This document shows, one piece after another, positions 2,548 to 19,608 of a stretch of 64,000 nt of DNA. The DNA is from a virus (taxonomy: Duplodnaviria; Caudoviricetes). Each line of letters opens with the position of its first letter. The first letter of the stretch is position 1. Both the position numbers and the translations under genes were made by a program. The notes beneath the pieces are model-generated. The model did not search any database, was not told where the DNA came from, and saw nothing but the letters and a program-made list of their open reading frames with translations. The stretch lies in the IMG/VR virus record IMGVR_UViG_3300019124_000001, positions 32,001 through 96,000 of that record. One strand, given 5' to 3'.

Positions 2548-2880
2548 ATGGCAACACTTATCGTAAATCCTGACAACACTCGTATGCGCCGTGTGGAGAG
2601 TCATCAGCCGTTTCTGGCTGATTTGGACGAAATGCGCAAGTATGGCGTAAAAGCGTTCGTCCTGTCGTGGCTGATCGCACACTTCGATCATAGTGGCGAA
2701 AATATGAGAGATTTTCATTGGACAAAGTTGGGCGAAGAAACGGAAGTTCTTAACTGTCAGGGCTTCTATGAATGGGACGAACGATTTACTTTGTCTTACG
2801 TGGCTCTGACCATCGACGGATTCTTGATCGCCGTCATGCAAGACGCAAACGACGATGAAGTTAAATACCAAATCAACTAA
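2548..2880 (+). CDS. Hypothetical phage protein
   Basis: Promoter, RBS and terminator cassette. Confidence 0.8.
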   Translation: MATLIVNPDNTRMRRVESHQPFLADLDEMRKYGVKAFVLSWLIAHFDHSGENMRDFHWTKLGEETEVLNCQGFYEWDERFTLSYVALTIDGFLIAVMQDANDDEVKYQIN

Positions 2881-3032
2881 AGTTAAGCGGTGGGGAAACT
2901 CACCGCTTAACTTTTTATGGATGCTACGAAAAACTTTTAACATAGTGTTGACAGTGTGTTCTATTGGTGTTATATTATAGATAAGACGACAGCACAAAAC
3001 ATGCGCAACGAGCGCAAAGGAGAGAATTACAT

Positions 3033-3296
3033 ATGACGGAACACGAAAAGAAATACAGCGAAATTGTCGAAGCGGTGGGTTTGAATAATCTGATTCCTCT
3101 TATCCCTGCAACGAAAGAAGAAGTGCAAGATGCGCTCTCATGTAACTGTTATTTAAACAACATTCCTCTTCAAAGTTGGGACATGCAACACTTCAATGTT
3201 CTCAGATTGACTAAACGAGCAGGATATCAGGATAATTCGTTATCGTTTACGGTATGCGTTCTGAAACAAGCGGCTAGAATGTGGGCAAAATCATAG
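3033..3296 (+). CDS. Hypothetical phage protein
   Basis: AAGGAG-AATTACAT-ATG start. Confidence 0.75.
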   Translation: MTEHEKKYSEIVEAVGLNNLIPLIPATKEEVQDALSCNCYLNNIPLQSWDMQHFNVLRLTKRAGYQDNSLSFTVCVLKQAARMWAKS

Positions 3297-3454
3297 TATT
3301 TTATAACCCTGTATCTCTACAGGGTTCTTTTTAACTGAGCAGTTATCTGAATATTCCGTGTATTCAATTGATTGTTGACTTTCTTTTCCGTATCCTGTAG
3401 TATTATGTTTGTAAGAGAACAACACGCGCATAGCGCAAAAGGAGACAATTACAT

Positions 3455-3883
3455 ATGGCAAACGCTTACTACGAACTGAAACAGAAACATCAGGCAGAAG
3501 TAAACAACTTCCCGATGGTGTTTGCATTTAGCAAACAACAGTTTGCGGAAGCAATGGAGAAACTTGGGTTGACGGAAGCCGACACTGACAAAATCTATTC
3601 TATCGGTGGCGGTGGATTCATTCGCAAATCTGATTCGGATGCATTTGGTGAAATGTTTAAACGCCACGCCAAGGAAATGCAGGAAGCCGTTGACGCTGAC
3701 AGCACAGGAGATGGATTCGTATTTGACATGTTCAACTACGAATTAGCTAATCATGAATATGTCTTGACATATGATGTTCAGCCCGCTCTCGACGCTTTAG
3801 ACCTCACCATAGAACAGGTCAACACAGACCCGAAACTCAAACATGCTCTCGAAAAAGCATGTAAAGCACAATTTGAAGTATAG
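3455..3883 (+). CDS. Conserved Firmicutes phage/MGE protein (AFSxxQF...GGGGF...FxYELxNHEY family)
   Basis: Recognisable conserved motifs; RBS and terminator. Confidence 0.75.
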   Translation: MANAYYELKQKHQAEVNNFPMVFAFSKQQFAEAMEKLGLTEADTDKIYSIGGGGFIRKSDSDAFGEMFKRHAKEMQEAVDADSTGDGFVFDMFNYELANHEYVLTYDVQPALDALDLTIEQVNTDPKLKHALEKACKAQFEV

Positions 3884-3987
3884 CAAGCACATAAACCCAT
3901 AGCAATATGGGGTTTGTGCTATATATTAATTATCAGAAAATTTTGTATATTCAATTGGGTGTTGACATTACCTTACATCTCATGTAA

Positions 3988-4459
3988 TATAAGACTTGTA
4001 AGGCAAATCAATTACATAGTGCGAAGCACACAGGAGGAGCCAAAATGAACAACACGAAAACCATCTTCAATACCGATGAAACCTTTGTCTATCAGATCGT
4101 TGTTGATGGTAAGGAAACGAAATACTACAAAGGTGTTCATGACCTGTTCGAAAACTGCGGTTTCCGTTTGACGGGTGTAAATCAGTCTCAAAGCACACGC
4201 GAAGAACTGCAACGGCAACCGAAATTCAGCGGGTTAATTGGTCCGATGTGGAACGGCTATCATGAACTTGAAGGTGTTAAGTATCCCTGCATTAGATACG
4301 AATGCCCGAAAGAATATGCTACCTATGCAAACTAAAGCAGGGCTTCCCCTGCTTTTTCTAATTTGTCAATTTACTGAAAATTCCGCGAATCCAATTTACT
4401 GTTGATATTATATCTATCTGCCTGTATTATAAGACTTGTAAGGCAAATCAATTACATAG
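3988..4459 (+). repeat. 32-bp direct repeat TATAAGACTTGTAAGGCAAATCAATTACATAG (3988-4019 and 4428-4459)
   Basis: Identical copies in adjacent cassette leaders. Confidence 0.9.
4045..4335 (+). CDS. Hypothetical phage protein
   Basis: AGGAGG RBS, terminator. Confidence 0.8.
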   Translation: MNNTKTIFNTDETFVYQIVVDGKETKYYKGVHDLFENCGFRLTGVNQSQSTREELQRQPKFSGLIGPMWNGYHELEGVKYPCIRYECPKEYATYAN

Positions 4460-4473
4460 GGAGATGGAAGAAC

Positions 4474-4803
4474 ATGGCACAAAACTTTGAGTACCTTTGC
4501 AGTACGCCTGTAGAAGAGGATTGCGCACAAGTAGGGGAGGAAAATTATGAGCAACGCGCAAAACGCGAATGTCGTGCCCTCATTGGTCAACTTATACGGA
4601 TGTACGGCGAACCGCCTGAAGGTGTGACGCTGGTCACTAAGGGGTTCCCGCACGATTTTGGGACGTATTACGAAGTTATCGTTAATTTCGACGATGCGAA
4701 CAGGAAACAAACTGCATACGCTTGTATGCTGGTTGACGGGCTTCCTGACCTTTGGGACGAGCAAGCAAGGGAAGAGTTAGGGCTGAACGAGAAAACGGCT
4801 TAG
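4474..4803 (+). CDS. Conserved phage protein (TPxEEDCAQVG...FPHDFGTYYEV family)
   Basis: Start moved to ATG 4474 after RBS; conserved motifs. Confidence 0.75.
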   Translation: MAQNFEYLCSTPVEEDCAQVGEENYEQRAKRECRALIGQLIRMYGEPPEGVTLVTKGFPHDFGTYYEVIVNFDDANRKQTAYACMLVDGLPDLWDEQAREELGLNEKTA

Positions 4804-4922
4804 AAGGGCAAATAGACGGGGTGAAAGCCCCGTTTTTGTTTTTCAATTGCATATTGACACGTTTAGAATAGTGGTGTAATATATTAGATGTAAGCGACAA
4901 TTACATAAGGAGATGGGGAAAC

Positions 4923-5429
4923 ATGAGAATTGAACCGTTCCAACAAACCGTAAACAACTCGCAAACGTTGAGTGTAGGAAGCAAATTCAACGTTAAGCTG
5001 TACGAGAAGGATACTGTAAACGTCTGGAAGGTAGAAACCATCGAAAGTGTTTCCGTGATGGGAGATAAAACCACTGTGACTGGCAAAGCGTCATTCGTTG
5101 AACAGGTCGAATTGCGTTCTTTGATGGACTTGTTACACGAAACTCAATCTGGCTTGTTCTTCCGAACAGTCGGAAAATGGAGGTTGCGCGAAACAATTAC
5201 GGGCTTTCTTGTAGTCGAACACGAAACGAAGGGCGAATACGGGTTTATGAGTCAAAAAGTAGAATGGAAGGGCAAGACTTTTGACAAGCTACCCAATGCT
5301 GTTCGTGCAGTGATTCAAGAGTGGTGGGAACTGAAAAACCCGCGCTACGAAACCCGCCCTCTTTTGGACGGGAAACAGATGGCAAGTATGCATTCAAACC
5401 TCAATGAATCTGGTCGTTACAAGATATAG
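4923..5429 (+). CDS. Hypothetical phage protein
   Basis: Promoter, AATTACATA, RBS. Confidence 0.75.
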   Translation: MRIEPFQQTVNNSQTLSVGSKFNVKLYEKDTVNVWKVETIESVSVMGDKTTVTGKASFVEQVELRSLMDLLHETQSGLFFRTVGKWRLRETITGFLVVEHETKGEYGFMSQKVEWKGKTFDKLPNAVRAVIQEWWELKNPRYETRPLLDGKQMASMHSNLNESGRYKI

Positions 5430-5777
5430 CGAAACATCTGATGGGTGAATATGGATTAATTGAAAACAAACAACAAAAACAGGGTATTGTCTGCCCTGTT
5501 TTTGTTGTTGACAATTCCACTTTAGTACGGTGAAGCGTCTAATCATTGAATAGTGCTATAGGACTAGTATTAAAGTCATGTTGTCGTCTACAGGCTCTAG
5601 GAGCCATTTTAAGCGATTTTACCCCTTATCTGGTATAATCCTATTCGGATGATGTGAAACGCCATTCTGGTGGCATTCTAAGGGCTGTGTTTTTGTTGGT
5701 GTTCCTGTTAGAATGGGGTTGCAAACGCAAGACACTAGATTATAATAAGGATATAGACTGATAAGGTGGTGTTTCGT

Positions 5778-5933
5778 ATGGAGATCACAACAAATTGCTT
5801 GGGGCAAGTGTGGGTAAAGTGTGTTCGTGACTATTATGTTGGTAAACTTCGTACAATGAAGAAAGATGAATTTTATTTAATCCATCTTTCAACTGCAAAA
5901 ATGCTACAAGCTCAAGGGTTTGTTGAAATCTAA
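5778..5933 (+). CDS. Small hypothetical protein (51 aa, MEITTNCLGQVWVK...GFVEI); not in ORF track
   Basis: TTGCAA/TATAAT promoter, AAGGTGG RBS, hairpin terminator; resembles 53534-53727. Confidence 0.6.
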   Translation: MEITTNCLGQVWVKCVRDYYVGKLRTMKKDEFYLIHLSTAKMLQAQGFVEI

Positions 5934-6808
5934 ATAATTACATATTAAGCAGACGTAAATAAATGCGTCTGCTTAATTCATGTTAATAATTATCAGATAA
6001 TTGCGAAGAATTAGAATAGTTTCTTTGCTACGGCGAAGCGGCGATACTGCGTACTTTAGAACGGTGAAGCGTTAGTCTTTCGAACAGTGAAGCGGCATAG
6101 CAGGGAAATCACGGAATATGCAGAATAGACTGACATATTTGACAATTCTAACTATAATTGAGATCGCCGCTTGCAAAATATGCATTTAACTTCAGATGAA
6201 ATCACTGTTTTATCCAACGTTGAACAGGTGGGGACATTGACATAAGACATCTTTAATAATAACTTAAATCAACAATAATTGAATAAATGTTAATCATATT
6301 GATAAGGAATCTCTAATCTTAGGATACAAACACTGAATATTCTGAATTTTATGAATAGAAGAACTTTTCAACAGGGTGTTGAAAAATGGCATTTTTCCAC
6401 TAGGAAACTTTTTGTCGAATCGCTTCTAAAGCCCCTAGAATGTCCGTAGAGACGTGCAATACGTTGCCCATATATTCCCCTTGGCACCCTCCAAAAAATC
6501 GTTTGTACGGGAAATTTCCCGAATATGCAATAACGTATTCATTCTGAGCAATTCTGATAATTCGAGAAGGCTTGATACGTCTAGGTTTTATACCCCCGCA
6601 GGGTATATGATGCGCATTGCATATTCTGCATAATATGCAACGTGTGGGAAATATTTGACTATATAGTACAAATGAGAGGGCTTGACATAAATATTTTTTT
6701 GTGCATTATTCAACATAGTGTTGACAAATGAATTTCTGCTGACCAATCATTGACCGAGCATCCCTTTTATGGTATGTTAATCTAGATAAAACAATCGGAG
6801 GGATTAAA

Positions 6809-7243
6809 ATGAAATCTTACTTCACTAAACTTAATAATCGACTGAAAGCGCGTGACAACAATTATCATCTATTGTTAATTATCGAATGTTTTGTAATACT
6901 TACATTTGTAATAAATGTGATTTTAGGTGATATGATGTTTATTTTATTTCAAGGAATCCTGCTGTTAATAATGAGAGAGTTAAGACAGAATTTAACTAGA
7001 TCGTGGCAGGAGTTACAACTTTATAGATTACATATTAATAGGAAAATAATTATTCACTTAGAAGAGTTAATAGAGATAGAAAAATGGACAGTAAGAGGAA
7101 TGCAGACAGTGATTCAAGTCAGAGTTTATAGAGCAATACAAAATGAAATAAGGAAGGAAACTGAAGAAATTAGGGAATCTCTTGAGGCGTATGAAGTGGA
7201 TTTATCTAAAGAAGCAATAGTCGGACAATTTAAAGATGCTTGA
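6809..7243 (+). CDS. Predicted membrane protein, very AT-rich
   Basis: Two hydrophobic segments; GGAGG RBS. Confidence 0.65.
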   Translation: MKSYFTKLNNRLKARDNNYHLLLIIECFVILTFVINVILGDMMFILFQGILLLIMRELRQNLTRSWQELQLYRLHINRKIIIHLEELIEIEKWTVRGMQTVIQVRVYRAIQNEIRKETEEIRESLEAYEVDLSKEAIVGQFKDA

Positions 7244-7470
7244 CATCCCTGTCAATATATGATAAGATTTTGTCAGTATCACCCGATTCCTAATTTGAAC
7301 GACACAAAATGTGTCGGGCTGTAGGCTATGCGCTTACAGCTTTCTTTTTGTGTAAAAATTTTAGAAAATTCTGTATATTCAACAGAGTGTTGACACTTGT
7401 ATTCAAATGTTGTATACTCGTTTTAGTGGCAGATATACCACGACAACAATTACATAATGGAGGGTTCATA

Positions 7471-7791
7471 ATGACTGTGTTTACGAATGACCTGACTGTT
7501 TTGCAAGGCGAAGACCTATTTAAGCAGTGCCTGAAAGAAGCATGGTACACCTCTCATCGTGGACAGGTTGGAGAGTTCGATAATCTCGATAAGCAGGATA
7601 TTGCAAGCGTCCTATTTAAAGCTCTGCACGAGCTTGACTTGATCAAAGAAGGCGAATTGGACAACATGCACCACATGAGCCGTAAAGCGTATAAACGCAA
7701 GCTGGAAGCCTTCTTGGTGCGTTGGGCAAAATACTGCGACAATCCAGACGATGCGGACATGTACAAAGAATTCCTCGAAACCACCGAATAG
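7471..7791 (+). CDS. Hypothetical phage protein
   Basis: Start moved to ATG 7471 after AATTACATA-GGAGG. Confidence 0.75.
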   Translation: MTVFTNDLTVLQGEDLFKQCLKEAWYTSHRGQVGEFDNLDKQDIASVLFKALHELDLIKEGELDNMHHMSRKAYKRKLEAFLVRWAKYCDNPDDADMYKEFLETTE

Positions 7792-7876
7792 GTGGTTTTT
7801 CTTTTTAATAAGGTATTGATATAATTTTAAAAATATGCTATAATTAAGAAAAGTCGTAATTACATAGGGGGAAAAG

Positions 7877-8278
7877 ATGAATTATCAGCGTCATATGTGC
7901 ACATGCGGAAAAAGACCTGTACGCTACAAAGGACTATGCAATCCTTGTTATCGCGCACAACAAATTAAGGCGAAGCGACAAAAGCAAAAAGAGGAGGAAA
8001 TTAAAAGTACTTTTGAGATCGCCCAACAGCTTTTAGATCAATGGGAAAAAGAAATGAGAGAGTCAGTTAGAGAGGGAGGAAGATATGTTCACTATCCGTC
8101 TCAAACGAAGTTGGTACAGATGATATGGGACGAGCTAAATGAAGAAGTAAAACGCCTAACGGTAGCGGTTTTGCAAAGCAGGAAGGTACATGTCGATGGG
8201 AGAGATATATTGAATCGCATAAAAGAAAGAATTGAAAATCCATCGAATCGCACAAGCATGGAAGAACAGCTAAAATAG
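7877..8278 (+). CDS. Hypothetical protein with N-terminal CxC...CxxC zinc motif
   Basis: CTCGK...GLCNPCY. Confidence 0.7.
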   Translation: MNYQRHMCTCGKRPVRYKGLCNPCYRAQQIKAKRQKQKEEEIKSTFEIAQQLLDQWEKEMRESVREGGRYVHYPSQTKLVQMIWDELNEEVKRLTVAVLQSRKVHVDGRDILNRIKERIENPSNRTSMEEQLK

Positions 8279-8358
8279 CTGTTCTTTTTCTATTGACACA
8301 CAACGCGTGACATGATATATTGAATATAGAGATTCAATTACATATCAGGAGGGTTATT

Positions 8359-8721
8359 ATGAGCCGCAATAAGCCAAGAATCAAACATTATGGTGATGGA
8401 ATCACCCGCAATGCCGTTAAATCGTTTGCCCGCATGTTGCCAAAAATGGGCAATATCACGGTTGTACGTGGAGAGTTTGACAACAGTCGCAAATGGTATC
8501 GAGTTCGTTTCATTAACGACATGGGTCATCAGTTCGTTTTTCACGGATTCGCATGGTGGTTTGGAGGAGAAGGCCCGAACGGACTTGTAAAATGCCTGAT
8601 CTCGTTAGGGTTCGAGTACGAACAAGTGAAGTGGTTAATGGGGCGCGAGTGGGCAGGAGATAATCACATGCCAAATTGCTGGAAGCTGGAAGTGCCACAC
8701 GCCCTAGGGGTGAAAGCATGA
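8359..8721 (+). CDS. Conserved phage protein (GFAWxxGGEGPxGL)
   Basis: Start moved to ATG 8359 after AGGAGG. Confidence 0.75.
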   Translation: MSRNKPRIKHYGDGITRNAVKSFARMLPKMGNITVVRGEFDNSRKWYRVRFINDMGHQFVFHGFAWWFGGEGPNGLVKCLISLGFEYEQVKWLMGREWAGDNHMPNCWKLEVPHALGVKA

Positions 8722-8912
8722 AAGAAGCAATCTTAGGAAAGTATACATTTACTTTCCGTGGCAAGAATGGTAATGTACAAACCATCGAAATACCCGCATT
8801 CGTTGAACATCAAGCATATATGTATGCACGTGATCTAGCAGAACAATTAATGTTCTACTGGGAATGCGAGGTAAGTTATGAACGAAACTTACTGATACAA
8901 AATCGCTCCTAA
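8718..8912 (+). CDS. Hypothetical protein
   Basis: ATGA overlap with upstream gene. Confidence 0.6.
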   Translation: MKEAILGKYTFTFRGKNGNVQTIEIPAFVEHQAYMYARDLAEQLMFYWECEVSYERNLLIQNRS

Positions 8913-9005
8913 TTGGGGCGATTTTCTTTTTGTTCTTATCTGTTGACAGTGTTACTTATGACTGCTATAATAATAATAGATTCAATTACATAGGGGGAAA
9001 TACTA

Positions 9006-9320
9006 ATGGAAGATACAGAAATTGTATTGATCAAGACGAATGCAGATATCAAGATACGAGAAAATCAACCGTTTATCTATGAAAATATTAAATACATCTG
9101 TAAACGGATCATCACATTGACCTTCGAAGAGTCAGCGCGTTTTCGTATCCAGTTGGAAGTGTCAGCGATTCGCTTAGAAGGCGAGGTTTGTCCGCACTGC
9201 CCAATGCCTATTTATGGAAGCCAACAGGCATTGAGACACAATGGACAAGTGATGCACCTGAAGTGCGCAATTGAATCAGGAGACTTTGAAAGAATACGAA
9301 AAGAAGCAAGCCCCCAATAA
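9006..9320 (+). CDS. Hypothetical protein with CxxC...HxxC motif
   Basis: Cassette with promoter, leader and terminator. Confidence 0.7.
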   Translation: MEDTEIVLIKTNADIKIRENQPFIYENIKYICKRIITLTFEESARFRIQLEVSAIRLEGEVCPHCPMPIYGSQQALRHNGQVMHLKCAIESGDFERIRKEASPQ

Positions 9321-9494
9321 GGGGGCTTTTGTTTGTTGACAATAGATGATTTTTCAATTGCTTGTTGCAAACAAAAAAGCAATGAGCGCTGAAAAAAGTT
9401 GTTGACTGTCACTTTCATCCATGTTATACTAAAAGTGTCGAAAGGGATAAACACTAATCGACAAAAAATTACATATGAAAAGGTGGAATTATTA

Positions 9495-9896
9495 ATGTGC
9501 CAAGTTTGTGTAAATACTGTCCGCGAAAACATGAAGGGCGCTATCGAAGTGATCGGGAATCGAAAGTTGCCACTGCTGGAAGTGCGGCGCAAGCCAGCCG
9601 CCGCTATAACTACTTTCGGTTTGGAAGTCGGCTTCGAAGTTGAGCACTCTGTCAAAGAAGCGGAAGTCGTCAGCTTCTATGTTGCGGGAAACATTTTTCA
9701 TGTCGCTGAAATGGAAGACGGAAACGTTCTGATTCAGGACGAGTTGGAAATTGTAGACCGCAAAAATACGGTTGAATGGTTCTTGAATCGCCCCGAAGAA
9801 TGTTTTTGCTACAAGTGCCTGCTCTGCTCCGTAATCGTCGAAATATACAAGGAAGTCAAGGAATCGGCAGATCAAACACCACAAGTTGTAAATTAA
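9495..9896 (+). CDS. Hypothetical Cys-rich protein
   Basis: Start moved to ATG 9495 after AAAGGTGG. Confidence 0.7.
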   Translation: MCQVCVNTVRENMKGAIEVIGNRKLPLLEVRRKPAAAITTFGLEVGFEVEHSVKEAEVVSFYVAGNIFHVAEMEDGNVLIQDELEIVDRKNTVEWFLNRPEECFCYKCLLCSVIVEIYKEVKESADQTPQVVN

Positions 9897-10020
9897 TCCG
9901 TAACGCCCTACTAAAGTAGGGCGTTTTTCATTTCCTCGGACAAACGAAAACTATGTCTTGACAAATTGTTCTGAATGATGTATATTATCAAATATCAAGA
10001 TATAGCTAGGAGGAAAAGCC

Positions 10021-10203
10021 TTGACATCTCAAAATATTGCCGTACTTTATAGAAAAGAGCGCAAAATCAAGCGTGACATTCGTCGTAAAAAACGCCGTGA
10101 AACAATAAGGCAACGATTGGAAGAATGCGGAAGAATGTTGCTGTGGGTAGGTGTATTCTATGTAATGATTGTTCTGTACAAAATGGCAACTGATTTTCAA
10201 TAA
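10021..10203 (+). CDS. Small basic membrane protein
   Basis: GGAGG RBS; basic N-terminus plus C-terminal TM segment. Confidence 0.55.
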   Translation: MTSQNIAVLYRKERKIKRDIRRKKRRETIRQRLEECGRMLLWVGVFYVMIVLYKMATDFQ

Positions 10204-10287
10204 CCTGTTGACTTTTGTACGCACTAGTAGTATTATATAGACAGAGGAAAACAACATTTTGCATCAATTACATAGGGGGTTTTGCAA

Positions 10288-10356
10288 ATGCAAACCATTA
10301 AGGCTCTATTCGTGGAGCCAGAAAAGTTCTCCAAGGTTGTAGAAATCGACATATGA
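10288..10356 (+). pseudogene. 22-aa ORF MQTIKALFVEPEKFSKVVEIDI, probable truncated gene remnant
   Basis: Full promoter/AATTACATA/RBS cassette but early stop; resembles the N-terminus of DUF3846-type proteins. Confidence 0.4.
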
Positions 10357-10477
10357 GGACGAAGATAGTCAACGGGGGAAGTGACACATATGTCATCTCC
10401 CCCGTTTGAATTTTTGTTGTTGACACAGAAGAGGAAGTCATGTTATACTATAAACAACGATTAGCAAACGACTAGAG

Positions 10478-10867
10478 GTGAACACGATGGAAGCAGTAGC
10501 CAGAACACATAACGTTGTACCAATGCCGCGCTACGACTATATGCGCGGGGATATTTATATGGTAGACCTTAACATTGACTCACACGGCAGGGAGCAACGG
10601 GGCTATCGTCCCTGTGTAATCGTCTCCAACAATATAGGAAACAAGTTCTCTCCAATTGTAACCGTTATTCCCATCACGTCCAGCAAAAAGGACTTTAAAT
10701 GTCATGTGCCAGTAGTATCTGAAGCTCTGGATAAAGATAGCGTTGTTACCTGTGAGCAGGTCAAGACCGTCGATAAAACACGACTTAAAAATAGAATTGG
10801 TCGATTGACTTCTAGTGAAATGGAAGCAGTTGACATGACGCTGAAAATGAGCTTAGGATTGAGTTAA
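10478..10867 (+). CDS. mazF: MazF/PemK (EndoA/NdoA-like) endoribonuclease; no adjacent antitoxin
   Basis: RGDIYMVDL...EQRGYRPCVIVSNN.GN..SP...IPITS...EQVKTVDK.RL...G.L...M..VD..L..SLGL. Confidence 0.92.
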   Translation: MNTMEAVARTHNVVPMPRYDYMRGDIYMVDLNIDSHGREQRGYRPCVIVSNNIGNKFSPIVTVIPITSSKKDFKCHVPVVSEALDKDSVVTCEQVKTVDKTRLKNRIGRLTSSEMEAVDMTLKMSLGLS

Positions 10868-11004
10868 TAGAAACGATCTAACCACCCCTTGGGTGGTTTT
10901 TTTGTGCACACTTCATTCAATTGCCTGTTGACAATATGAGTGTTGACGTGATATTCTTATATCAAGAGATGAGTAGTTCGTTACAAAGAGGAGGAATTAC
11001 ATAA

Positions 11005-12252
11005 ATGGAAATGACAGCGGTTGTAACCCGTAAAAATTTGGAATCTCTGGAAGAAAAGATCAACAAATGGAATAAGCGCTCCAAGAAGACGGGTGTATCT
11101 CCAATTGTGCTGAAGGTTCTGGAATCGTGGGTAGAACCTAAAGAGCGCAAGGTGGAAGGCGAAACAGTGACTTATTTAATTCACTGGCGAAAAATCGTAT
11201 TGAATGGCGAACGACCGCAAATCAAAGGGTACCGATTCGTAAGCGCGATTGAACATCTGACCGAAGGTGCAAACATCCTCCGTACTATCGAAGGCGAGGA
11301 GGTTCCAGCGCATTACCGCACGGCACGTGGAAACTGCGATCATTGCAAAATCAATCGTTATCGAAAGCATACGGTAATTATTCAGAAAGCGGAAACAGGC
11401 GAATACATCCAGATCGGAAAGTCTTGTCTGTCAGACTTTCTTCCAAATCAGAATGTCGAAGAGGTAGCCAAATACTTCGAATACCTGTCCACCCTCTCTG
11501 ATGAGCTAAGACGGGTGGATGGCGGCGAACCTGACGAAGACGATGGTTATGAAAGCGGAATGGGTGGAGGTGGAAAACGTGAGTTCTATTTACCAGATTT
11601 CCTAACGGTGTGCGCCGAATTGGTTTTGCGAGGTGGCTACACAAAAGCATCAAAAGAAGGATACGATTTTCGATTGTCAACAGGCGATAGGGCATGGAAC
11701 TTTTTGGTAGATAAGAGCGACTACAACAAGCCTTCTAAAGACCCGTTGGAAATTACAAAGTTTAATCCTCTTAACAAAGAAATGAGTCAAGAGTTCGGTG
11801 AAAGGGTTCTTAAATGGGTGTTAACGCTTGACGGTAATAATGACTTGAGCGAATATGAACACAACATTTTGACAATCGCTAAATACCAAGCTGTAGAATG
11901 GAAGAACCGAAACATAGCGGCTTCCATGTTTGCCGCATATCAACGGGCGCAAGATCGACTGCAAGATATGAAAGAGGAGGATAGAAAGGCGAACACAAGC
12001 GAACACATCGGACAACCGAAAGAACGAATTGCAATCAAAAATGCTAAAGTAGTTAAGATCGTTAAAAACGAAGGAACCTATGGAGTAAGTCACATTCACA
12101 CAATTGAGGACGAGAAGGGTAATGTGTTCGTATGGTTCTGCACAGGGATTCCATTGGAGGAGGGTGCTATATACGATGAACTAAGGGGCACAGTCAAAAA
12201 GCATGTCGAGTTTAGGGGTATAAAACAAACCGTGCTATCAAGAGTCTCTTAG
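11005..12252 (+). CDS. Conserved large-phage protein with CDHC/GxSC zinc site and C-terminal OB-fold-like domain
   Basis: CDHCKINR.R, QIGKSCL.DF, GTVKKH.EFRG.KQTVLSR. Confidence 0.7.
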   Translation: MEMTAVVTRKNLESLEEKINKWNKRSKKTGVSPIVLKVLESWVEPKERKVEGETVTYLIHWRKIVLNGERPQIKGYRFVSAIEHLTEGANILRTIEGEEVPAHYRTARGNCDHCKINRYRKHTVIIQKAETGEYIQIGKSCLSDFLPNQNVEEVAKYFEYLSTLSDELRRVDGGEPDEDDGYESGMGGGGKREFYLPDFLTVCAELVLRGGYTKASKEGYDFRLSTGDRAWNFLVDKSDYNKPSKDPLEITKFNPLNKEMSQEFGERVLKWVLTLDGNNDLSEYEHNILTIAKYQAVEWKNRNIAASMFAAYQRAQDRLQDMKEEDRKANTSEHIGQPKERIAIKNAKVVKIVKNEGTYGVSHIHTIEDEKGNVFVWFCTGIPLEEGAIYDELRGTVKKHVEFRGIKQTVLSRVS

Positions 12253-12408
12253 AACTACCTTAACAGGTAGTTCTTTTTGTCTTATTTTGTCGATAAGTAT
12301 ATTCGCGAAATTGCTTGAAAACCGTTGACTAATGTTTGCATATGGTATATACTAGCATTGTAAGGAGTTTACGGATAACAAAAGACTAATAAATGGAGGG
12401 TTTACAAA

Positions 12409-12861
12409 ATGAAAAAATTCGTGGCTGGTCTGATCGTTGGTGTGCTGATGATGTGCGGCAACTCTGCATTTGCAAGCTCCATCGTCAAAGAGCTTCAGAT
12501 TGTTGTTGATGGTTCCGATAAGACGATTCATTCGATGGAGTACGATGATCGAAACTTCGTGGCTATTCGCGATATTGTTTCGGCAACTGGCGGCAATGTT
12601 AGAGTAGAAAACGGCAAGATCAATGTACTGACTGGCAAGTTCATCAATGACATGGTAGGGAAACAAGTTAGAGTCAAGGTCAAGCAAGATGTAAACGGCT
12701 TTGATGTGGATACAAGCCAAGTATACACCGTAACCAATATCAACAACTTTAACGCAATTTATGGGAACTTCCCCACAAACTATTGGAAGGGCGCAACAGC
12801 GTTCATCACTGTTGGAAACAAACACTTGCTAAACCCTTTCGATGTTGAAATGGTGAAGTAA
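12409..12861 (+). CDS. Secreted protein with copper amine oxidase N-terminal (stalk)-like domain
   Basis: Signal peptide ending AFA; Y.DRNFVAIRDIVSA.GG.V motif. Confidence 0.65.
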   Translation: MKKFVAGLIVGVLMMCGNSAFASSIVKELQIVVDGSDKTIHSMEYDDRNFVAIRDIVSATGGNVRVENGKINVLTGKFINDMVGKQVRVKVKQDVNGFDVDTSQVYTVTNINNFNAIYGNFPTNYWKGATAFITVGNKHLLNPFDVEMVK

Positions 12862-13500
12862 AATACATCTAAACAAAAACCACCTTCGTCGGGTGGTTTT
12901 TTTGTTTGGATGTAAGTGATAGGAGTAGCTTGCAGGACATCCTCTGTGGCGCTCTCGTTGATATGTGTGATCGTTTCTACGGCTGTTTGATAGCCTAGCG
13001 CATACTCACGAGTTTTGGGCGATATGCTGAACCTAAAACGCTATAAGATGTTATTGACTGCTGTTTTATTATGTGTTAGCATTGATATGCGGTAAGGGTT
13101 TCATCATATAGCCCCATATGTGGCGCATAATGGGGCAACAATTATTTGGATGGTGTTAATGTTGTTTAACACTAAAACACCAAGAATACGAAGGGCATAA
13201 AATACTTGAACATCTAAATAATACCTTAGAATACATTAATTCTATGTAAATCAACGGTAGCCTTGTCTCATTTTGTAGTTGACAACCATACCGAATTTTG
13301 GTAAGATGAAAGTAGAAACGCATTACATAGTGGAGGGAGAATCATTTGCACATGCAAGCCAAAATCATTAACGAAAATCTCTTTCGTCTGCCCATCGGTA
13401 TGGTACTAGAAGTTGAGTCCTATGATTCCGTAGCTGTTTACTGTGAACACGAAGGCAAAACCCTTCTCTTCATCAGAGACGAAGAAGTCGAATTAAAGGG

Positions 13501-13905
13501 GTGAAGTTAATGAGCATTGAAGAACGCTACTTTAGGTGCTATGACCGAGAGGGCAATCTTGTGGGTATCGTTGGGGGCTTTACAATTTACGATGCTATCC
13601 ATCAACTTCAACCGCAACCTTGGGGAACGTTTGCTTCTGTTGTTGAAATTGATATTTCAAAACTAGAATCTTTAAGCCCCATGACCATCTTCAATTCAAC
13701 ACAAGACCAAATGATAAATGCACTTAACACGACTGGCATGATTGTGCTGAAAGGCGACGACAATCGTGTTATGGTTTATCGTGGTGTAAAAAAGTTTCAA
13801 GTAGTTGGGAGAGACTTTCGAATTACTCACCAAACGACCGAACAAGCAGTAGAATGTGCTGTTGCTAAGATGCAGGGCAATTTGGAGTGGAAAGCCGTCC
13901 AATAG
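13501..13905 (+). CDS. Hypothetical protein
   Basis: ORF followed by terminator. Confidence 0.65.
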   Translation: MKLMSIEERYFRCYDREGNLVGIVGGFTIYDAIHQLQPQPWGTFASVVEIDISKLESLSPMTIFNSTQDQMINALNTTGMIVLKGDDNRVMVYRGVKKFQVVGRDFRITHQTTEQAVECAVAKMQGNLEWKAVQ

Positions 13906-14021
13906 TGTAACAGTAGCCACCCACAAAAAGGGTGGTTATATTTTTGTATCAGGGTGTTGACATGTGTCGATAATTGTCCTATAATTTTGGGTAGTAGGAC
14001 AAATTACATAAGACAAGGAGA

Positions 14022-14558
14022 ATGAATGTGTTCAAAGGTATCATCAATGCAATTGACGGATTGACCAACCAATTAGCCGAGTTTAACAAACTCGAAAGAG
14101 AAAGGAGAGCCGCCGACCAAAGGAATTTTGAAGTTTTGAAAGAAACTATAGAATCTCAACAGCGCCAAATCGACCTCCTTAACTTCCAGTTGAAAGAGAT
14201 TAAAGCTGGAATTAACAATCCGCAAGTTTTGGAGGTTTTTAGTAACCAAAAAATACAAGATCAACAAGATCAGAAAGAGCATCAAAAAAGCAAGTACGAA
14301 TGGGTTCACGTCCCCACGAATCGCAGAGGGGACATTATGTGGTCTTCTAGCGATATGACGAGAGAACAAGTCGAAAATCAGGTCTTATACGAACTAGAAG
14401 CGATTCATGGAGTAGATATTTCTTTGGGGAGAAACTTGGATACCAGTCTCTATACTCAGATCAAGTCTCACAACAAGGGGATATCTTGGGGCGAGATCGT
14501 TGAACGTGCACGTCAAAATGCTATCAAAGTCGAAACAGTGTCGGTGATTCAAGAATGA
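14022..14558 (+). CDS. Coiled-coil hypothetical protein
   Basis: Promoter, AATTACATA, AAGGAG RBS. Confidence 0.7.
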   Translation: MNVFKGIINAIDGLTNQLAEFNKLERERRAADQRNFEVLKETIESQQRQIDLLNFQLKEIKAGINNPQVLEVFSNQKIQDQQDQKEHQKSKYEWVHVPTNRRGDIMWSSSDMTREQVENQVLYELEAIHGVDISLGRNLDTSLYTQIKSHNKGISWGEIVERARQNAIKVETVSVIQE

Positions 14559-14815
14559 ACAACTTGAAAGGAAAAAAGTTTGGAAGATTAACCGTTCTTT
14601 CGAAAGGAGAAGGGAAGTCATTCTGGAAGTGTGAATGCAAATGTGGCAACATTGTTACCGTGAGAAGCGACAATCTGCGAAGCGGCAGAAGTCAAAGTTG
14701 TGGATGCTTACGTAAACGATCAAGAACTGGCAATGTCTTAATTGTTGAGCGAGATGAAGATGAAATACCCACAGTGTTACAAATGGATGGACGCAAATAT
14801 CGGTTAGTGAATTGA
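14555..14815 (+). CDS. Zinc-binding module typical of phage HNH/AP2 endonuclease N-termini, no nuclease domain
   Basis: GKKFGRLTV...WKCECKCGN...L.SG.S.SCGC. Confidence 0.7.
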   Translation: MNNLKGKKFGRLTVLSKGEGKSFWKCECKCGNIVTVRSDNLRSGRSQSCGCLRKRSRTGNVLIVERDEDEIPTVLQMDGRKYRLVN

Positions 14816-14867
14816 GCGAAATTACTTAGCATGACTCATGACATCATGTTAATGGAGGGTTCATTCC

Positions 14868-15173
14868 TTGAATGTTGAAGCAGACAACTCTAAAAGCGTA
14901 GCACAGCTTAAAGAGGAATTGCAACAGCTAGTGCTATTGCTTGCTTCAAAAGATGTAACCAGAAAGGAAATTGTTGACCTTGCAAGAGGTGCATACAACA
15001 AAGGGAACTGTTCAGTCGATGGTTGCGAAAGACCTGCCCGAACAGGTGGTTTATGTAGCGCTTGCTATCAATATTTTAGAAGGCACGGAACACTAGTTCG
15101 TATTCGCAGACGAGCTTCGAATCGTTCTGTAGGAACGTGCCCACATAAAACAAATAAGGGGATGAAAATATGA
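14868..15173 (+). CDS. Hypothetical protein with CSVDGC...GLC..CY zinc finger
   Basis: Motif; GGAGG RBS. Confidence 0.6.
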   Translation: MNVEADNSKSVAQLKEELQQLVLLLASKDVTRKEIVDLARGAYNKGNCSVDGCERPARTGGLCSACYQYFRRHGTLVRIRRRASNRSVGTCPHKTNKGMKI

Positions 15174-15357
15174 CCAAGAAGCAGGACTGGATACTTACAG
15201 CTATAACACTGCTGGCACTACTCGTTGTCGTTGGCTTGGAAGTTCGCCATCAAATCATAACCTTTTACAGCTAAAGAAAATCCTCCAATTGCGAATTGAC
15301 AATTGGAGGATTTTCTTGTATACTAAAAATAGATCAATTACATAAAGGTGTGATGAC

Positions 15358-15585
15358 GTGACACGAGAAGAGTTTTTGGAGTCTAGAGGATGGAAACTAA
15401 CCTTCGATGCACCAACAATGAAAAAGTGGGACTTATTTACTGAATTCACGCATTATGAACTCTATGCTCACTTTCCAGACGATGGCGATAAGCCTTATTG
15501 CAACCTGTATTACACGTCTGGCGACGATTGCTTCGTGTTCTCGTGGCGAAATATGAAATCAATGATCGAGAAGTTGACAACATAA
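15358..15585 (+). CDS. Hypothetical protein
   Basis: Hairpin-embedded promoter, AATTACATA leader. Confidence 0.65.
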   Translation: MTREEFLESRGWKLTFDAPTMKKWDLFTEFTHYELYAHFPDDGDKPYCNLYYTSGDDCFVFSWRNMKSMIEKLTT

Positions 15586-15592
15586 GGAGGAA

Positions 15593-15805
15593 ATGCTTTT
15601 GCATAAACACACTCGAAAGCATATCATGCGCGTAGCAAAATGGATTTCCATGATTTCGTTTTTCGCATTTCTATTGACTACTGGCATTATAATCTATTTC
15701 GACAACACGACAAATAAATTCTTGGAACTCGTATTCATGTTATCAATAGGAATATGTTGGTGGAGTGCGTCAATTTACGATACAAATGCAATGCAAAAAG
15801 ATTGA
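15593..15805 (+). CDS. Small two-TM membrane protein
   Basis: AAGGAGG RBS; hydrophobic segments. Confidence 0.6.
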   Translation: MLLHKHTRKHIMRVAKWISMISFFAFLLTTGIIIYFDNTTNKFLELVFMLSIGICWWSASIYDTNAMQKD

Positions 15806-15888
15806 TGCAAATGCGGTTATATAGAAGGAAGTGTAGTCAATATGTTGTTGACATATTGTTAGCTCTATGCTAAAATTAATGCAAGGAG

Positions 15889-16131
15889 GTGAGTTCGACA
15901 ATGTACATCACTGTAGTTAAAGGAATATTGACAGGTCGAATCGGAAGCGATTCGACGAACAGAGCCACGGATAAGGTTCATGTAGTTGCTAGAAGTGGTA
16001 ATGAGACTGTGTGCGGAATTAAACTCAAAAACAGCAAATCTCTAGGATTTCCAGAGATAGCAGAATCGAAAGAGGTAAATTGCAAGCGCTGTAAATCGTC
16101 TTACTATGGAGACTTGGCAATAGAGATTTAA
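15889..16131 (+). CDS. Hypothetical protein (H...CG...CKRC zinc motif)
   Basis: Promoter and RBS. Confidence 0.6.
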   Translation: MSSTMYITVVKGILTGRIGSDSTNRATDKVHVVARSGNETVCGIKLKNSKSLGFPEIAESKEVNCKRCKSSYYGDLAIEI

Positions 16132-16172
16132 TGCTAAGTTATCTACGAATTACATAATCGGGAGGTTATTAT

Positions 16173-16430
16173 ATGGGCAGTATGAAGTTTAATGAGGAAT
16201 GTTGCTGTCAAGAAGAACCGAAGTCAATCGGAAGATACGAGGGCATCAATCGCACATTTTTCATCTATGCAAAATCGAATGAAGGCACATTTGGAGCCAT
16301 TCTCGTAGGCGCAAGTTACGAAGAAGCGGAATGGCTCCAATGGAGCCTGTCTGAAGCTGGTAAGAGCGTATGCGCTGACAATGGTAGAGACGATGAAATG
16401 ATTTACGAAGACGAAATCGTTTGGACTTAA
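16173..16430 (+). CDS. Hypothetical protein
   Basis: AATTACATA-GGGAGG leader. Confidence 0.65.
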   Translation: MGSMKFNEECCCQEEPKSIGRYEGINRTFFIYAKSNEGTFGAILVGASYEEAEWLQWSLSEAGKSVCADNGRDDEMIYEDEIVWT

Positions 16431-16518
16431 AACAAAATGTGGCATTGTCTATTGACAATTGCCACATTTTGTTTTATAATAATGGTAGATCGAATTACAT
16501 AATGAGAGGGCAGATATT

Positions 16519-16719
16519 ATGTCTTGGAAAAATGAGAAGCAAAATTATATTAATCTTGGAGGAGGTAACGGTTGGAAAGAAATTAAACTCTGTCCTTTAA
16601 TTTTCGAAAAAGCTCTCTCTGAAGAGGAAGTTGAATTGTTTTGGTCTTTCGTAAAAAGGGTTCAACAGAAGGAAGCAGAAATCTATGGCGATGATTCAGA
16701 AGGCTATGGATATCTGTAA
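16519..16719 (+). CDS. Hypothetical protein
   Basis: First gene of a small-ORF array. Confidence 0.6.
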   Translation: MSWKNEKQNYINLGGGNGWKEIKLCPLIFEKALSEEEVELFWSFVKRVQQKEAEIYGDDSEGYGYL

Positions 16720-16937
16720 ATGAAATGTTGGTTTTATTTAGAAAGGGAGTTGATGTTATGTGGTACTGGAAAGCAAAAACAAAGGATGGTCAAGAGTTGT
16801 GTGGTCATTGTGAAGATTATAACGGCGCTTTAGATACTTGTTTGGCAGAAAATCCACAATACAAAGATGAGGACATTATTCAAATTGAAGTTTTGGAAGA
16901 CTAAATGAAACGTTGATTTCATAATAAAGGAGGGATA

Positions 16938-17123
16938 TTGATGTTTACGCTATTCGAGGTGGATGGAGCAAGCAAGTGGTATAGAACTGACGATGATATT
17001 TACAATGTCCTCGAACGACAAGATGGAGTATTCTTAATTTACAAATTGCGAGAAAATGAATACATCTATACAGGAATTAAATATCACTCGTTGCAAGAAT
17101 GCGAAAATGCAATAAAAGGTTAG
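16938..17123 (+). CDS. Hypothetical protein
   Basis: AAGGAGG RBS. Confidence 0.55.
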   Translation: MMFTLFEVDGASKWYRTDDDIYNVLERQDGVFLIYKLRENEYIYTGIKYHSLQECENAIKG

Positions 17124-17374
17124 ATTCGCAGAAAGGAGGTGGGTGCAAAATGATCGCATTATCTTTCATTGTGTATTTGGCATCGCTGTACTTTGGTTAC
17201 AAACTAATGAAAACGGATAGCAATAAAATACTTAACCAAAAGGATAAAATACTTATTTCTATATGGTTTACTATATTCATCGTATCTCAGGTTATTTGGA
17301 TCGGAGGAGTCATGAATGCAATTATGTCGTAAATAAAATTTTACTTCTATAAATACGAAAGGAGTTGAAGTGCA

Positions 17375-17581
17375 ATGTTAAATAGTTTTACTGATAGTAA
17401 AAATCAAAAAGGCACCATTGGATCAAAAGTTTGTCATTGGATGACATTTGGCAAACCCAATGCAGAAGTGAAGGGTGTTATTAGAATTTATAAACGTGGC
17501 AAGGCTGGAACTATGCTTCTGCTGGAAGGAGATCGGACAACGGTTCCAGCAAAGAGTTACACGATTATTAATAAATTTTAG
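17375..17581 (+). CDS. Hypothetical protein
   Basis: AAAGGAG RBS. Confidence 0.55.
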   Translation: MLNSFTDSKNQKGTIGSKVCHWMTFGKPNAEVKGVIRIYKRGKAGTMLLLEGDRTTVPAKSYTIINKF

Positions 17582-17808
17582 TTTCGCAAGGAGTTTTTAA
17601 AGTGGAGAAAAGAAAACGAACATTATGGTGGAAGGCAATTGACAGCAAAGGGGTTACTATCGACCTCTGTATAGCCGAAAACAAAAAAATTGCTGAATAC
17701 GCATTCAAAAGAGCATCAAAGAAGTTTGTAGACAAATACGTTGACTGGAAGGATACCGTGATTCTTTATGAAGATTAATTTAATTCAATAAAAGGGAGTG
17801 TTTGGAAT

Positions 17809-18051
17809 ATGAACAAGTGGACTTTGCGTGATGAACTTATGTGGGCAGGATACAGCTTCGGAGAAGCTACTAGGCTCATCTTGAACGGCAATGTATCAAT
17901 CAACGAAGTGAAATGCAAAAAACCTAAGCAGGAAGTGATCGACGGTAACTTAATTTGGGTAGACAAAAGAAACAAGGTCATTCGACTGACAAATGGAAGA
18001 AAGGTTAAACCCAAGTCCCAACATGAGTCTTGGGTTTCAAGATACATCTAA
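17809..18051 (+). CDS. S4-like RNA-binding domain protein
   Basis: S..EA.RLI.NG.V.IN......P...V..G..I.V.KR pattern as in S4/TyrRS C-terminal domains. Confidence 0.6.
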   Translation: MNKWTLRDELMWAGYSFGEATRLILNGNVSINEVKCKKPKQEVIDGNLIWVDKRNKVIRLTNGRKVKPKSQHESWVSRYI

Positions 18052-18053
18052 GG

Positions 18054-18416
18054 ATGAAACGGAAAATTAATTTATATCTGGACGATCTTCGAGATTGTCC
18101 GCAAGGGTTTGTGGTTGCTAGGAATATCGAAGATGCAATTCGAATATTAAAAGAGTACGAAGTTGACATTCTGACACTTGACCATGACTTAGGAGAGGAC
18201 GAAAACGGAAACCTTCTACCCTCTGGCTATGATCTCGTGAAATACATGTGCGAAAACGGGCTTCGTGCCAACAAAATCTACATGCATACCGATAATAGTG
18301 TAGGTCGTGAAAATATGTATCAAACGTTGCTTGGGGCGCAAAGAAGAGGTTTTATTGATGAAGATATTGAAATTTATTATTATCCCATCACTAAAAACGT
18401 TTACACTGGCTACTGA
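18054..18416 (+). CDS. Cyclic-phosphate-processing receiver-like domain protein
   Basis: LYLDDLR.CP.GF..AR, LDHDLG, GYDLV, HTDN.VGR.NM. Confidence 0.8.
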   Translation: MKRKINLYLDDLRDCPQGFVVARNIEDAIRILKEYEVDILTLDHDLGEDENGNLLPSGYDLVKYMCENGLRANKIYMHTDNSVGRENMYQTLLGAQRRGFIDEDIEIYYYPITKNVYTGY

Positions 18417-18728
18417 TTCGGAAGAAATGAAGGTAATAAAGTTTTAACAAATAACGGATATTGTCAATTGACAATATCCGTTATTTGTTATATACTAGAA
18501 CTATCAACTTAAAAAGGGGGTGAGTTAAATGAAATTTTACAAATCTGATAGAGACGGCAAAATATATGTTAAGTATGATGGCGAATGGTATGTCAGAGGT
18601 GACAACAACATCTGGCATCAAACACTTCTGCCATCTAGCATTGTCGCATTAGAAGATGACGAAGATTTTAAAGCTGATTTTGAAAAATTCATTTATTCTA
18701 ATTAATCATGCATTTGGAGGTGAATTAA

Positions 18729-18935
18729 ATGTGGGACAAATTCTTCGATGAAGAAACGAGCGAAAAAATAGAAGGTCTGAAACGCGCAATTGGCGACTGC
18801 TATTTCCGCATAGCTACTCATCCTGACAACGAAGAGTATCGTCAGCAACAACTAGAGATGGCGAATAAGTACGGCAAGCAGTTGCAGGATGTTATCGAAA
18901 GTTTTCTTAGGAACATAAAAACAGCAAACGACTAA
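18729..18935 (+). CDS. Hypothetical protein
   Basis: GGAGGTG RBS. Confidence 0.6.
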   Translation: MWDKFFDEETSEKIEGLKRAIGDCYFRIATHPDNEEYRQQQLEMANKYGKQLQDVIESFLRNIKTAND

Positions 18936-19571: not shown

Positions 19572-19608
19572 TAATTCATGTTCAATTACATAGAAACGGA
19601 GCGAAGAC

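Follow-up and report, generated by a model that had tools for sequence, protein, structure and literature searches.

MazF is among the most studied of bacterial toxins, and its roles are disputed. The nearest characterised relatives of the gene described here are EndoA (MazF-bs) of Bacillus subtilis and MazF of Staphylococcus aureus, two type II toxins that cut at U^ACAU. Here, we describe a mazF gene without recognisable antitoxin on a stretch of 64,000 nucleotides (nt) of phage DNA (Caudoviricetes; bases 32,001 to 96,000 of IMG/VR record IMGVR_UViG_3300019124_000001; this whole stretch is called the window, and positions are counted from its first letter unless stated otherwise), together with a nine-base word that contains the UACAU sequence and is repeated ahead of the early genes of the same phage. 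The protein may be an early RNase that processes the phage's own early messages.

The published recognition words of MazF enzymes are UACAU for B. subtilis and S. aureus and UACAUA for S. thermophilum (passages including PMC8634880 and PMC10893535). An interplay between phage and MazF is described in Bacillus for Phi3T, whose proteins AimX and YosL (arbitrium system) bind and inactivate host MazF (PMC10769878); Phi3T thus encodes inhibitors of the host toxin, whereas the present phage encodes a toxin homologue. Phage T4 has RegB, an early RNase of RelE/YoeB-type fold that comes without antitoxin and cuts GGAG in early Shine-Dalgarno (SD) sites, aided by ribosomal protein S1 (PMC3014915). The phage described here likewise encodes an antitoxin-less enzyme of a toxin fold and has a word, here the predicted target, in its own early initiation regions. 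However, its protein is a MazF/PemK barrel with no homology to RegB, the resemblance being functional only, and its word lies beside the SD site while that of RegB lies inside it. Stand-alone MazF proteins are also found in the phages of PHROG 1936 (Psychrobacillus phage Perkons ORF37, Lactobacillus phages Bacchae gp166, 3-521 and ATCC 8014-B2, and Enterocloster and Thomasclavelia phages), several of which also have UACAU(A) in their leaders; their MazFs are at most 44.5% identical to the protein of the window. For Escherichia coli MazF, with its ACA specificity, the making of leaderless mRNAs has reportedly been proposed as a host stress model, which later work is said to dispute. A cut at SD-UACAUA-AUG would similarly give near-leaderless messages, but no phage-encoded enzyme is part of the E. 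coli proposal.

The phage MazF protein

Judged from its sequence, the 126-amino-acid (aa) protein is an intact member of the PemK/MazF family. It matches PF02452 (PemK/MazF) with an E-value of 3.4e-31 (108.1 bits at a cut-off of 23.1) over profile positions 2-108 of 109, and phrog_1936 ('MazF-like growth inhibitor') with an E-value of 1.8e-33. In the PDB, its sequence comes closest to S. aureus MazF (2.9e-22) and B. subtilis EndoA/YdcE (7e-19). With these enzymes the phage protein shares the Pfam family, the fold, the catalytic arginine and threonine and most RNA-contact residues, and the leader word of the phage contains their cleavage word. It differs from them in sequence (39-45% identity to the characterised relatives), in two shorter loops and in an 18-residue N-terminal extension (residues 1-18) that has no predicted secondary structure; moreover, its gene has no adjacent mazE, is monocistronic with its own terminator and belongs to a large phage. 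Among 1.8 billion representative proteins none is more than 53% identical, the only exception being a near-identical fragment on a 601-nt contig.

The first-pass annotation, made from the sequence alone, had pointed to a retained catalytic-type arginine (GYRP) and threonine (PITS), and the alignment to solved Bacillus MazF chains bears this out: Arg41 (GYRP) falls on Arg25 (GVRP) and Thr64 (IPIT) on Thr48 (AAIT). Both Arg25 and Thr48 are described as necessary for the activity of the B. subtilis and B. cereus enzymes (PMC7354611, PMC8634880). Arg41 is invariant and Thr64 nearly so among 20 relatives, and both are nearly invariant in an alignment of 69 sequences. G21, G34, E36, R41, P42 and N52 of the phage protein align with G6, G18, E20, R25, P26 and N36, which are reported to be conserved in UACA-type MazFs (PMC8634880). 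The AlphaFold model, built from the 69-sequence alignment, has a mean predicted local distance difference test (pLDDT) of 91.3 and is an SH3-like barrel as in the MazF/Kid toxins; its top Foldseek matches are 9g7k, 4mzm, 1ne8 and 4mdx (S. aureus MazF and B. subtilis YdcE), with template modelling (TM) scores of 0.88-0.95 when normalised to the target and 0.81-0.84 when normalised to the query, and root mean square deviations of 1.4-1.8. From these residues and this fold, the protein is quite likely to be an active endoribonuclease.

In a phylogenetic tree of phage and bacterial MazF proteins the phage branches are very long, and Perkons alone lies inside the bacterial EndoA-type group; the tree has at least 2 changes between the labels bacterial and phage. 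The searches also returned many metagenomic proteins of 230-290 aa that hold two MazF domains in tandem (single-chain 'pseudo-dimer' MazFs), and two of 471 aa with four MazF-matched stretches.

Search for an antitoxin

The gene had been described in the first-pass annotation as a monocistronic cassette with its own promoter (TTGACA...TATACT) and terminator and with no MazE. A promoter scan and the hairpin fold agree with the first part (Table 1): with a promoter of its own and a terminator on either side, mazF is insulated in both directions. For the second part, neither Pfam nor PHROGs gave an antitoxin-family match for the flanking open reading frames (ORFs), namely a 60-aa membrane-type ORF, a mini-ORF of 22/24 aa and a 415-aa phrog_2319 gene, and no co-transcribed antitoxin ORF of the MazE, AbrB or ribbon-helix-helix type adjoins mazF on either side. 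A six-frame search of the complete genome with PF04014 (MazE/AbrB) gave nothing at E <= 10, and Pfam finds no antitoxin family in the 49 called early ORFs of the window and the 24-aa mini-ORF.

To see what adjoins related genes, the 80 best bacterial genome loci with the closest mazF relatives (43-51% identity) were surveyed. An ORF of 45-130 aa that ends at most 45 nt from mazF is present in 51 of them, and in 47 of these 51 it has an EndoAI-type toxin-binding motif. A profile of the EndoAI type, built from 46 distinct antitoxins that adjoin bacterial relatives, recovers 48 of the 80 loci; it finds nothing among the 6,424 six-frame peptides of the phage (best E-value 0.31), nor at the Perkons locus and two provirus loci. 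The absence of a MazE-like partner therefore stands for the whole genome as well as for the mazF transcript, as far as PF04014 and the EndoAI profile reach. mazF is not part of a recognisable type II mazEF module; a partner of a novel type is possible.

The remaining 32 bacterial loci have no match to the EndoAI profile, and a few of these end at a contig edge. Seven loci of Oscillospiraceae/Ruminococcaceae type (L034, L036, L037, L047, L062, L073 and L088) have a chromosomal EndoA-type mazF with no recognisable antitoxin ORF upstream. One locus of a Bacillota metagenome-assembled genome (L065, 2438-2824) encodes a MazF of 128 aa with an N-terminal extension and the same EQRGYRP motif, lies among small phage-like genes and has no antitoxin ORF upstream; from its sequence it may be another stand-alone phage copy.

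The only ORF upstream of mazF had been read as a 22-aa remnant. An ORF of 22/24 codons does exist there, but it has its own promoter, leader word, SD site and hairpin, and a further ORF of 60 aa lies upstream of it. No relative that would make it a remnant was found, either with Pfam or with phmmer against the phage's own six frames: Pfam assigns it to no known family of which it could be a piece, the genome holds no paralogue of it, and a suspected resemblance to the start of DUF3846 proteins was not supported.

A nine-base word in early leaders

TACAT was selected for testing because it is the published cleavage word of the nearest characterised enzymes and a lytic phage might avoid the word of its toxin. 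The sense strand shows no genome-wide avoidance of TACAT (197 observed, 166 expected). The distribution of TACATA is strongly skewed, with 42 sense and 8 antisense copies in the early 30 kb and 2 sense and 20 antisense copies in a late 30 kb; in early-versus-late strand asymmetry TACATA ranks first of 2,090 hexamers, and TACAT second of 944 pentamers. The source of the skew is a nine-base word, AATTACATA, which contains TACATA. In the window it occurs 25 times on the plus strand and never on the minus strand (1.18 in shuffles, maximum 5), and in the whole genome 36 times on the sense strand and never on the other, while the reversed word has two copies on each strand.

The word belongs to translation-initiation regions. 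A start codon preceded by an SD site follows 40 of the 44 ATTACATA copies at a distance of 4-36 nt, and the conserved block is exactly 9 nt long. Three layouts are present, word-SD-AUG, word-small GC hairpin-SD-AUG and SD-word-0-1 nt-AUG (11 cases), and the leader can be written as …AAUUACAUAGGAGG…AUG. Leaders with TACAT make up 36 of 67 in the early region, 3 of 67 in the middle region and 2 of 41 and 2 of 30 in the late region: like the target of RegB, the word is concentrated in early and not in late initiation regions. As the gap from the -10 box to the word varies from 11 to 44 nt, it is an element of the RNA, within the initiation region; a role in the promoter or at the transcription start was rejected for the phage described here because of this spread. 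Antisense RNA was rejected too, the other strand having no nine-base and four eight-base copies.

When the 52 promoter-like sites that are followed by a start codon were scored, 34 had the word and 18 were without; among these 18 there is at least one scoring artefact, and mazF is a true case without the word. Its transcript of 456 nt has neither TACAT nor TACA, which taken alone is only weakly improbable.

Many early leaders (window 3000-4050; genome positions 25000-31100) have a GC hairpin of 4-5 bp with a loop of 3-5 nt, for example GCGCGTAGCGC and GCCGCAAGGC, placed between the word and the SD site or just ahead of the SD site; the word-hairpin-SD layout is found once in Lysinibacillus phage LC76P1. 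The copy of AATTACATA at 5936-5944 does not precede a gene and sits between a stop codon and a terminator hairpin; a cut there would deprive the message of its 3' hairpin. Scans of IMG/VR with two leader strings gave single matches only and no close relative that has the word, and IMG/VR loci with several ATTACATA copies proved to be AT-rich coding sequence and not leader arrays. A small early protein of 80 aa has a near-threshold match to the S4 RNA-binding domain (E-value 1e-4, 22.4 bits at a cut-off of 22.8); it might read the leader word in place of MazF.

MazF and UACAU leaders in other phages

In the phage collection searched, 99 records have a stand-alone MazF match of the PHROG 1936 type, all at less than 60% identity. 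PF04014 was absent from the five MazF-carrying phage records that were checked. In virulent Herelleviridae of Lactobacillus, mazF adjoins a helicase gene in two genera. The mazF of 8014-B2 is annotated as two overlapping coding sequences, although the tblastn match covers it as a single piece. The nine-base word is common to none of the other PHROG 1936 phages.

Eighteen large genomes of Bacillota phages were compared, 8 with a PF02452 match (MazF+) and 10 without (MazF-). Called leaders (-40..+1) with the word were counted, and all anagrams of the word served as control for composition. TACAT leaders are 1.28-2.96 times as frequent as the anagram mean in MazF+ and 0.28-1.50 times in MazF- phages (one-sided Mann-Whitney test, p 0.0004), the same test on TACATA leaders gives p 0.0029, and TACATA is the first of 60 anagrams in 5 of 8 MazF+ (the phage described here, Perkons, 3-521, 8014-B2 and CB457P2) and in 1 of 10 MazF- phages (LC76P1; Fisher test, p 0.032); it counts against these values that the genomes were hand-picked, if before the counts were seen, rather than drawn at random, that the p values ignore kinship (the pairs 8014-B2/ATCCB, Bacchae/3-521 and K/Twort are related) and that the gene calls are crude. 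A layout of the SD-UACAU-AUG type recurs in 3-521, as AGGAGGT-TACATA-TT-ATG in 7 leaders, and in Bacchae, as GAGGTAT-TACATT-ATG in 14 leaders.

Three MazF- phages of the Herelleviridae have few UACAU leaders in comparison with the anagrams: SPO1 (3 versus 8.0), LP65 (2 versus 7.1) and K (5 versus 11.0). The hosts of SPO1 and K, B. subtilis and S. aureus, carry an EndoA-type MazF, and we assume the same for L. plantarum, the host of LP65. From these counts, the low numbers would fit an avoidance of cleavage by host MazF in initiation regions.

A full-text literature search found no paper on the function of a phage-encoded MazF or on UACAU in phage leaders, and the 2026 paper on Perkons does not mention MazF (PMC13245101). 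As far as this search goes, the link of MazF to UACAU leaders is new; the gene itself is a new, divergent member of an annotated kind.

Gene arrangement and genome setting

The window is part of a virus record of 163,787 bp, which has direct terminal repeats and a CheckV completeness of 100% and is thus a complete phage. The same DNA is present in four DNA runs, all from one metagenome study of biocrust, and no RNA run with it is listed; near-identical DNA was not found in the phage collection searched. By one conserved protein of 689 aa, the nearest phage is Brevibacillus phage Sundance (66% identity), followed by Bacillus phage SP-15 and LC76P1. The host is probably a member of the Bacillales.

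mazF has a host-type promoter and lies within the early array, both of which speak for early expression; the array is made throughout of promoter-gene units like its own (Table 1). Between 9000 and 12500 there are 11 promoter-like sites against 6.9 +/- 2.6 in shuffles, the individual sites being modestly over chance.

Table 1. Coordinates of the mazF unit, its neighbours, the leader word and other genes (window positions unless marked as genome positions)
Feature	Position	Strand	Details
mazF promoter	10420..10449	+	TTGACA 10420-10425, 18-nt spacer, TATACT 10444-10449, extended -10 TG; 11/12 matches
Shine-Dalgarno site of mazF	10474..10480	+	AGAGGTG, 6 nt ahead of ATG; read from sequence
mazF coding sequence	10487..10867	+	126 aa, Arg41 and Thr64 kept; start ATG 10487, in-frame GTG at 10478, stop codon 10865-10867
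Intrinsic terminator of mazF unit	10880..10905	+	8-pair hairpin (10880-10898) and T run; fold -15.2 kcal/mol
Upstream mini-unit	10208..10415	+	promoter 10208-10236, leader word 10266-10274, GGGGG Shine-Dalgarno site, 22/24-codon ORF (starts 10282 or 10289, ends 10356), hairpin 10371-10406 (fold -26.3 kcal/mol), U run after it
Promoter and 60-aa ORF	9958..10203	+	ORF 10021-10203, basic, membrane-type; no family match, no leader word, not MazE-like
Downstream unit	10928..12252	+	promoter, leader GGAGG-AATTACATA-A-ATG (word 10995-11003), 415-aa phrog_2319 gene
24 exact copies of AATTACATA	526..24701	+	starts 526, 1243, 1870, 2524, 3025, 3447, 4010, 4450, 4899, 5936, 7448, 7858, 8336, 8984, 9467, 10266, 10995, 14002, 15336, 16148, 16493, 19584, 20546, 24693
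Eleven further copies of AATTACATA	genome positions 25066-31815		just upstream of the window
Isolated 25th window copy of AATTACATA	50845..50853	+	directly ahead of GGAGG
80-aa protein with near-threshold S4 match	17809-18051
325-aa recombinase	32220-33197
RecBCD inhibitor homologue	39924-40208
PnuC-like transporter	43704-44348
NadR-like adenylyltransferase	46300-47337
YqeY-like protein	47592-48089
CCA-adding enzyme	48651-50153
834-aa kinase-phosphatase-ligase fusion	55736-58240

Several other genes of the window were recognised. A recombinase of 325 aa is labelled integrase by PHROGs (E-value 1.2e-66) and has the MrpR N-terminal core-binding domain in Pfam; it may serve to resolve concatemers, and lysogeny is not necessarily implied. 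A homologue of the RecBCD inhibitor Gp5.9 of T7 (PF25708, E-value 9.7e-17) is present, as are a PnuC-like nicotinamide riboside transporter and a NadR-like nicotinamide-nucleotide adenylyltransferase; the MazF gene of Lactobacillus phage Bacchae also has a PnuC gene two genes upstream. An RNA-repair set consists of genes for an 834-aa fusion protein (P-loop kinase, metallophosphatase and RNA ligase of the T4 Rnl1 type), for a CCA-adding enzyme that has an HD domain, and for a YqeY-like protein. Cuts of the MazF type leave 2',3'-cyclic phosphate and 5'-OH ends; because enzymes of this set heal and seal such ends, a link to the phage MazF is conceivable.

Short palindromes and restriction-type words are extremely avoided in the whole genome, counted in a sense-strand sample (observed/expected): GGCC 12/164, CCGG 7/132, GCAGC 0/77, GCTGC 0/65, CCTGG 2/59, GGACC 0/40, AAGCTT 0/46 and ATCGAT 0/50, with zero copies each of AGATCT, GTCGAC, GCATGC, CCATGG and CTGCAG. 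This avoidance suggests that many restriction systems of hosts have exerted strong selection on the phage and that its DNA is unmodified.

Possible function of the phage MazF

The first-pass annotation had proposed three roles for the protein: an active developmental RNase, a titrator of host MazE or a subunit that poisons or reprogrammes host MazF dimers. The intact catalytic and RNA-contact residues, the insulated early unit and the leader word favour the first; the other two found no support in the computations and leave the leader word unexplained. Our best explanation is an active, antitoxin-free early RNase that would process the phage's own early messages. A single-strand endoribonuclease of the MazF type would be made early from its host-type promoter, and its probable recognition word, UACAU(A), stands in the translation-initiation regions of about 36-40 early genes of the phage. 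The enzyme would then cut early phage messages and probably any host RNA that bears the word. In the SD-word-AUG layout a cut would part the start codon from the ribosome-binding site and inactivate the message. In the remaining two layouts the 5' triphosphate would give way to a 5'-OH a few bases ahead of the SD site, which may destabilise or stabilise the message in a Bacillus-type host. Early expression would thereby be switched off or remodelled, as T4 RegB does at GGAG. An antitoxin would be unnecessary because the infected cell will be lysed and is not meant to survive, and the mazF message would escape cutting since its transcript lacks UACA.

The gene with its signals, the lack of a recognisable antitoxin, the word with its distribution and the association across genomes are observations. 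We infer that the protein is enzymatically active, which word it recognises, that it acts early and whether its effect is shut-off or processing. By analogy with the characterised enzymes, we lean slightly towards recognition of UACAU(A), or of the longer AAUUACAUA, by the protein; the whole chain of steps we regard as evenly balanced between right and wrong.

Besides the composition of the genome set, several observations weigh against the processing of early messages by the phage MazF. The recognition word is extrapolated from enzymes that are 39-45% identical to the phage protein, which has another residue in place of the P15 of UACA-type MazFs and one additional residue in its beta1-beta2 loop. 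A genome-wide scan showed no strand-specific avoidance of any word of 5-7 bases, palindromes alone being avoided. Shuffling of synonymous codons revealed no clear depletion in the late coding sequences: TACAT is not significantly reduced (26 versus 32.4 and 24 versus 27.3) and TACATA weakly so (2 versus 3.4 and 0 versus 3.6), so that late messages, too, would be cut roughly once in each kb by a freely acting RNase specific for UACAU. The word is also no more single-stranded in its own flanks than in shuffled ones (0.59 versus 0.59). Among the other phages, LC76P1 has no PF02452 match at E <= 10 and yet has TACATA in 11 leaders, while MazF+ phage TR-TP1 shows weak enrichment and Bacchae is weak for the hexamer. 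The word often comes directly after the -10 box in 8014-B2, ATCCB and CB457P2, where it may overlap the transcription start and thus lie partly outside the RNA. Nor is a 'self-immunity' of the mazF message general, as 3-521 and CB457P2 have the word in the leader of mazF.

Part of this evidence would suit a generic host-takeover RNase, which would degrade host and incidentally phage RNA for host shut-off and nucleotide recycling and would have no link to AAUUACAUA; something else would then read the word, for example a translational repressor of the RegA type, a translation enhancer or a host factor. mazF does lie among small early genes of unknown function, PHROGs groups the family with host-takeover functions, the word is not avoided in late genes, LC76P1 carries it without a MazF, the conserved block reaches 3 nt past UACAUA, and the weak S4 match of the small early protein offers another reader. 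However, the pentamer was specified beforehand, and its presence in one of the five positions of a 9-nt word is expected by chance in about 5 of 1,024 cases (somewhat more in AT-rich leaders); the contrast between the MazF+ and MazF- phages among the 18 genomes is not expected from a generic RNase either. We consider such an RNase rather unlikely, if a serious competitor.

mazF could also be accessory cargo outside the lytic programme: a captured toxin half that serves superinfection exclusion or inter-phage competition, is expressed in a carrier state or is decaying. Its absence from the nearest available relatives, Sundance and LC76P1, the moron-like insulated cassette and the MrpR-type recombinase gene would suit this, and Perkons, which has the closest phage MazF, is described as temperate (PMC13245101). 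Yet the reading frame is intact with all key residues present, the promoter is of the same type as those of the early neighbours, and the place of mazF beside the helicase gene, conserved in two genera of virulent Herelleviridae, speaks for a lytic function; we regard cargo as improbable.

Less probable still is a modulator of host MazEF that titrates host MazE, forms mixed dimers with host MazF or shields UACAU leaders by binding without cutting: AimX and YosL set a precedent for the inactivation of host MazF by phage proteins (PMC10769878), non-cognate MazE and MazF cross-neutralise among EndoA-type pairs (PMC10893535) and the low UACAU leaders of SPO1, LP65 and K suggest that host MazF threatens leaders, but a pure binder or decoy would not need the catalytic arginine and threonine and the conserved RNA-contact residues that are kept, and at most 53% identity to any bacterial MazF together with very long phage branches makes a precise mimicry of a host partner unlikely.

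Returning to an RNase that would act on early messages of its own phage, we give a little less than even weight to a broader conjecture. Several unrelated large phages of Bacillota would each have captured MazF without its antitoxin and written UACAU(A) into their early ribosome-binding regions, as a MazF-based temporal switch; phages that lack MazF but infect hosts with one (SPO1, LP65 and K) would have purged the word from their leaders; and the kinase-phosphatase-RNA ligase fusion could reseal ends of the MazF type.

Conclusions

Stand-alone MazF proteins of virulent phages have been annotated and then ignored. If the processing of early messages proves true, an antitoxin-free MazF would have a clear, selectable function, and the conserved nine-base leader word of about 40 genes would be explained. 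We know of no equivalent of RegB in phages of Gram-positive bacteria; the MazF described here would be a Gram-positive counterpart of the T4 enzyme and would offer a simple model of early-gene shut-off in these phages. The idea can be tested directly, as the MazF+ phages Perkons, 3-521, Bacchae and 8014-B2 are culturable. The enrichment of the word in MazF+ phages and its depletion in some MazF- phages would be genomic evidence that cleavage of the MazF type has shaped phage leaders.

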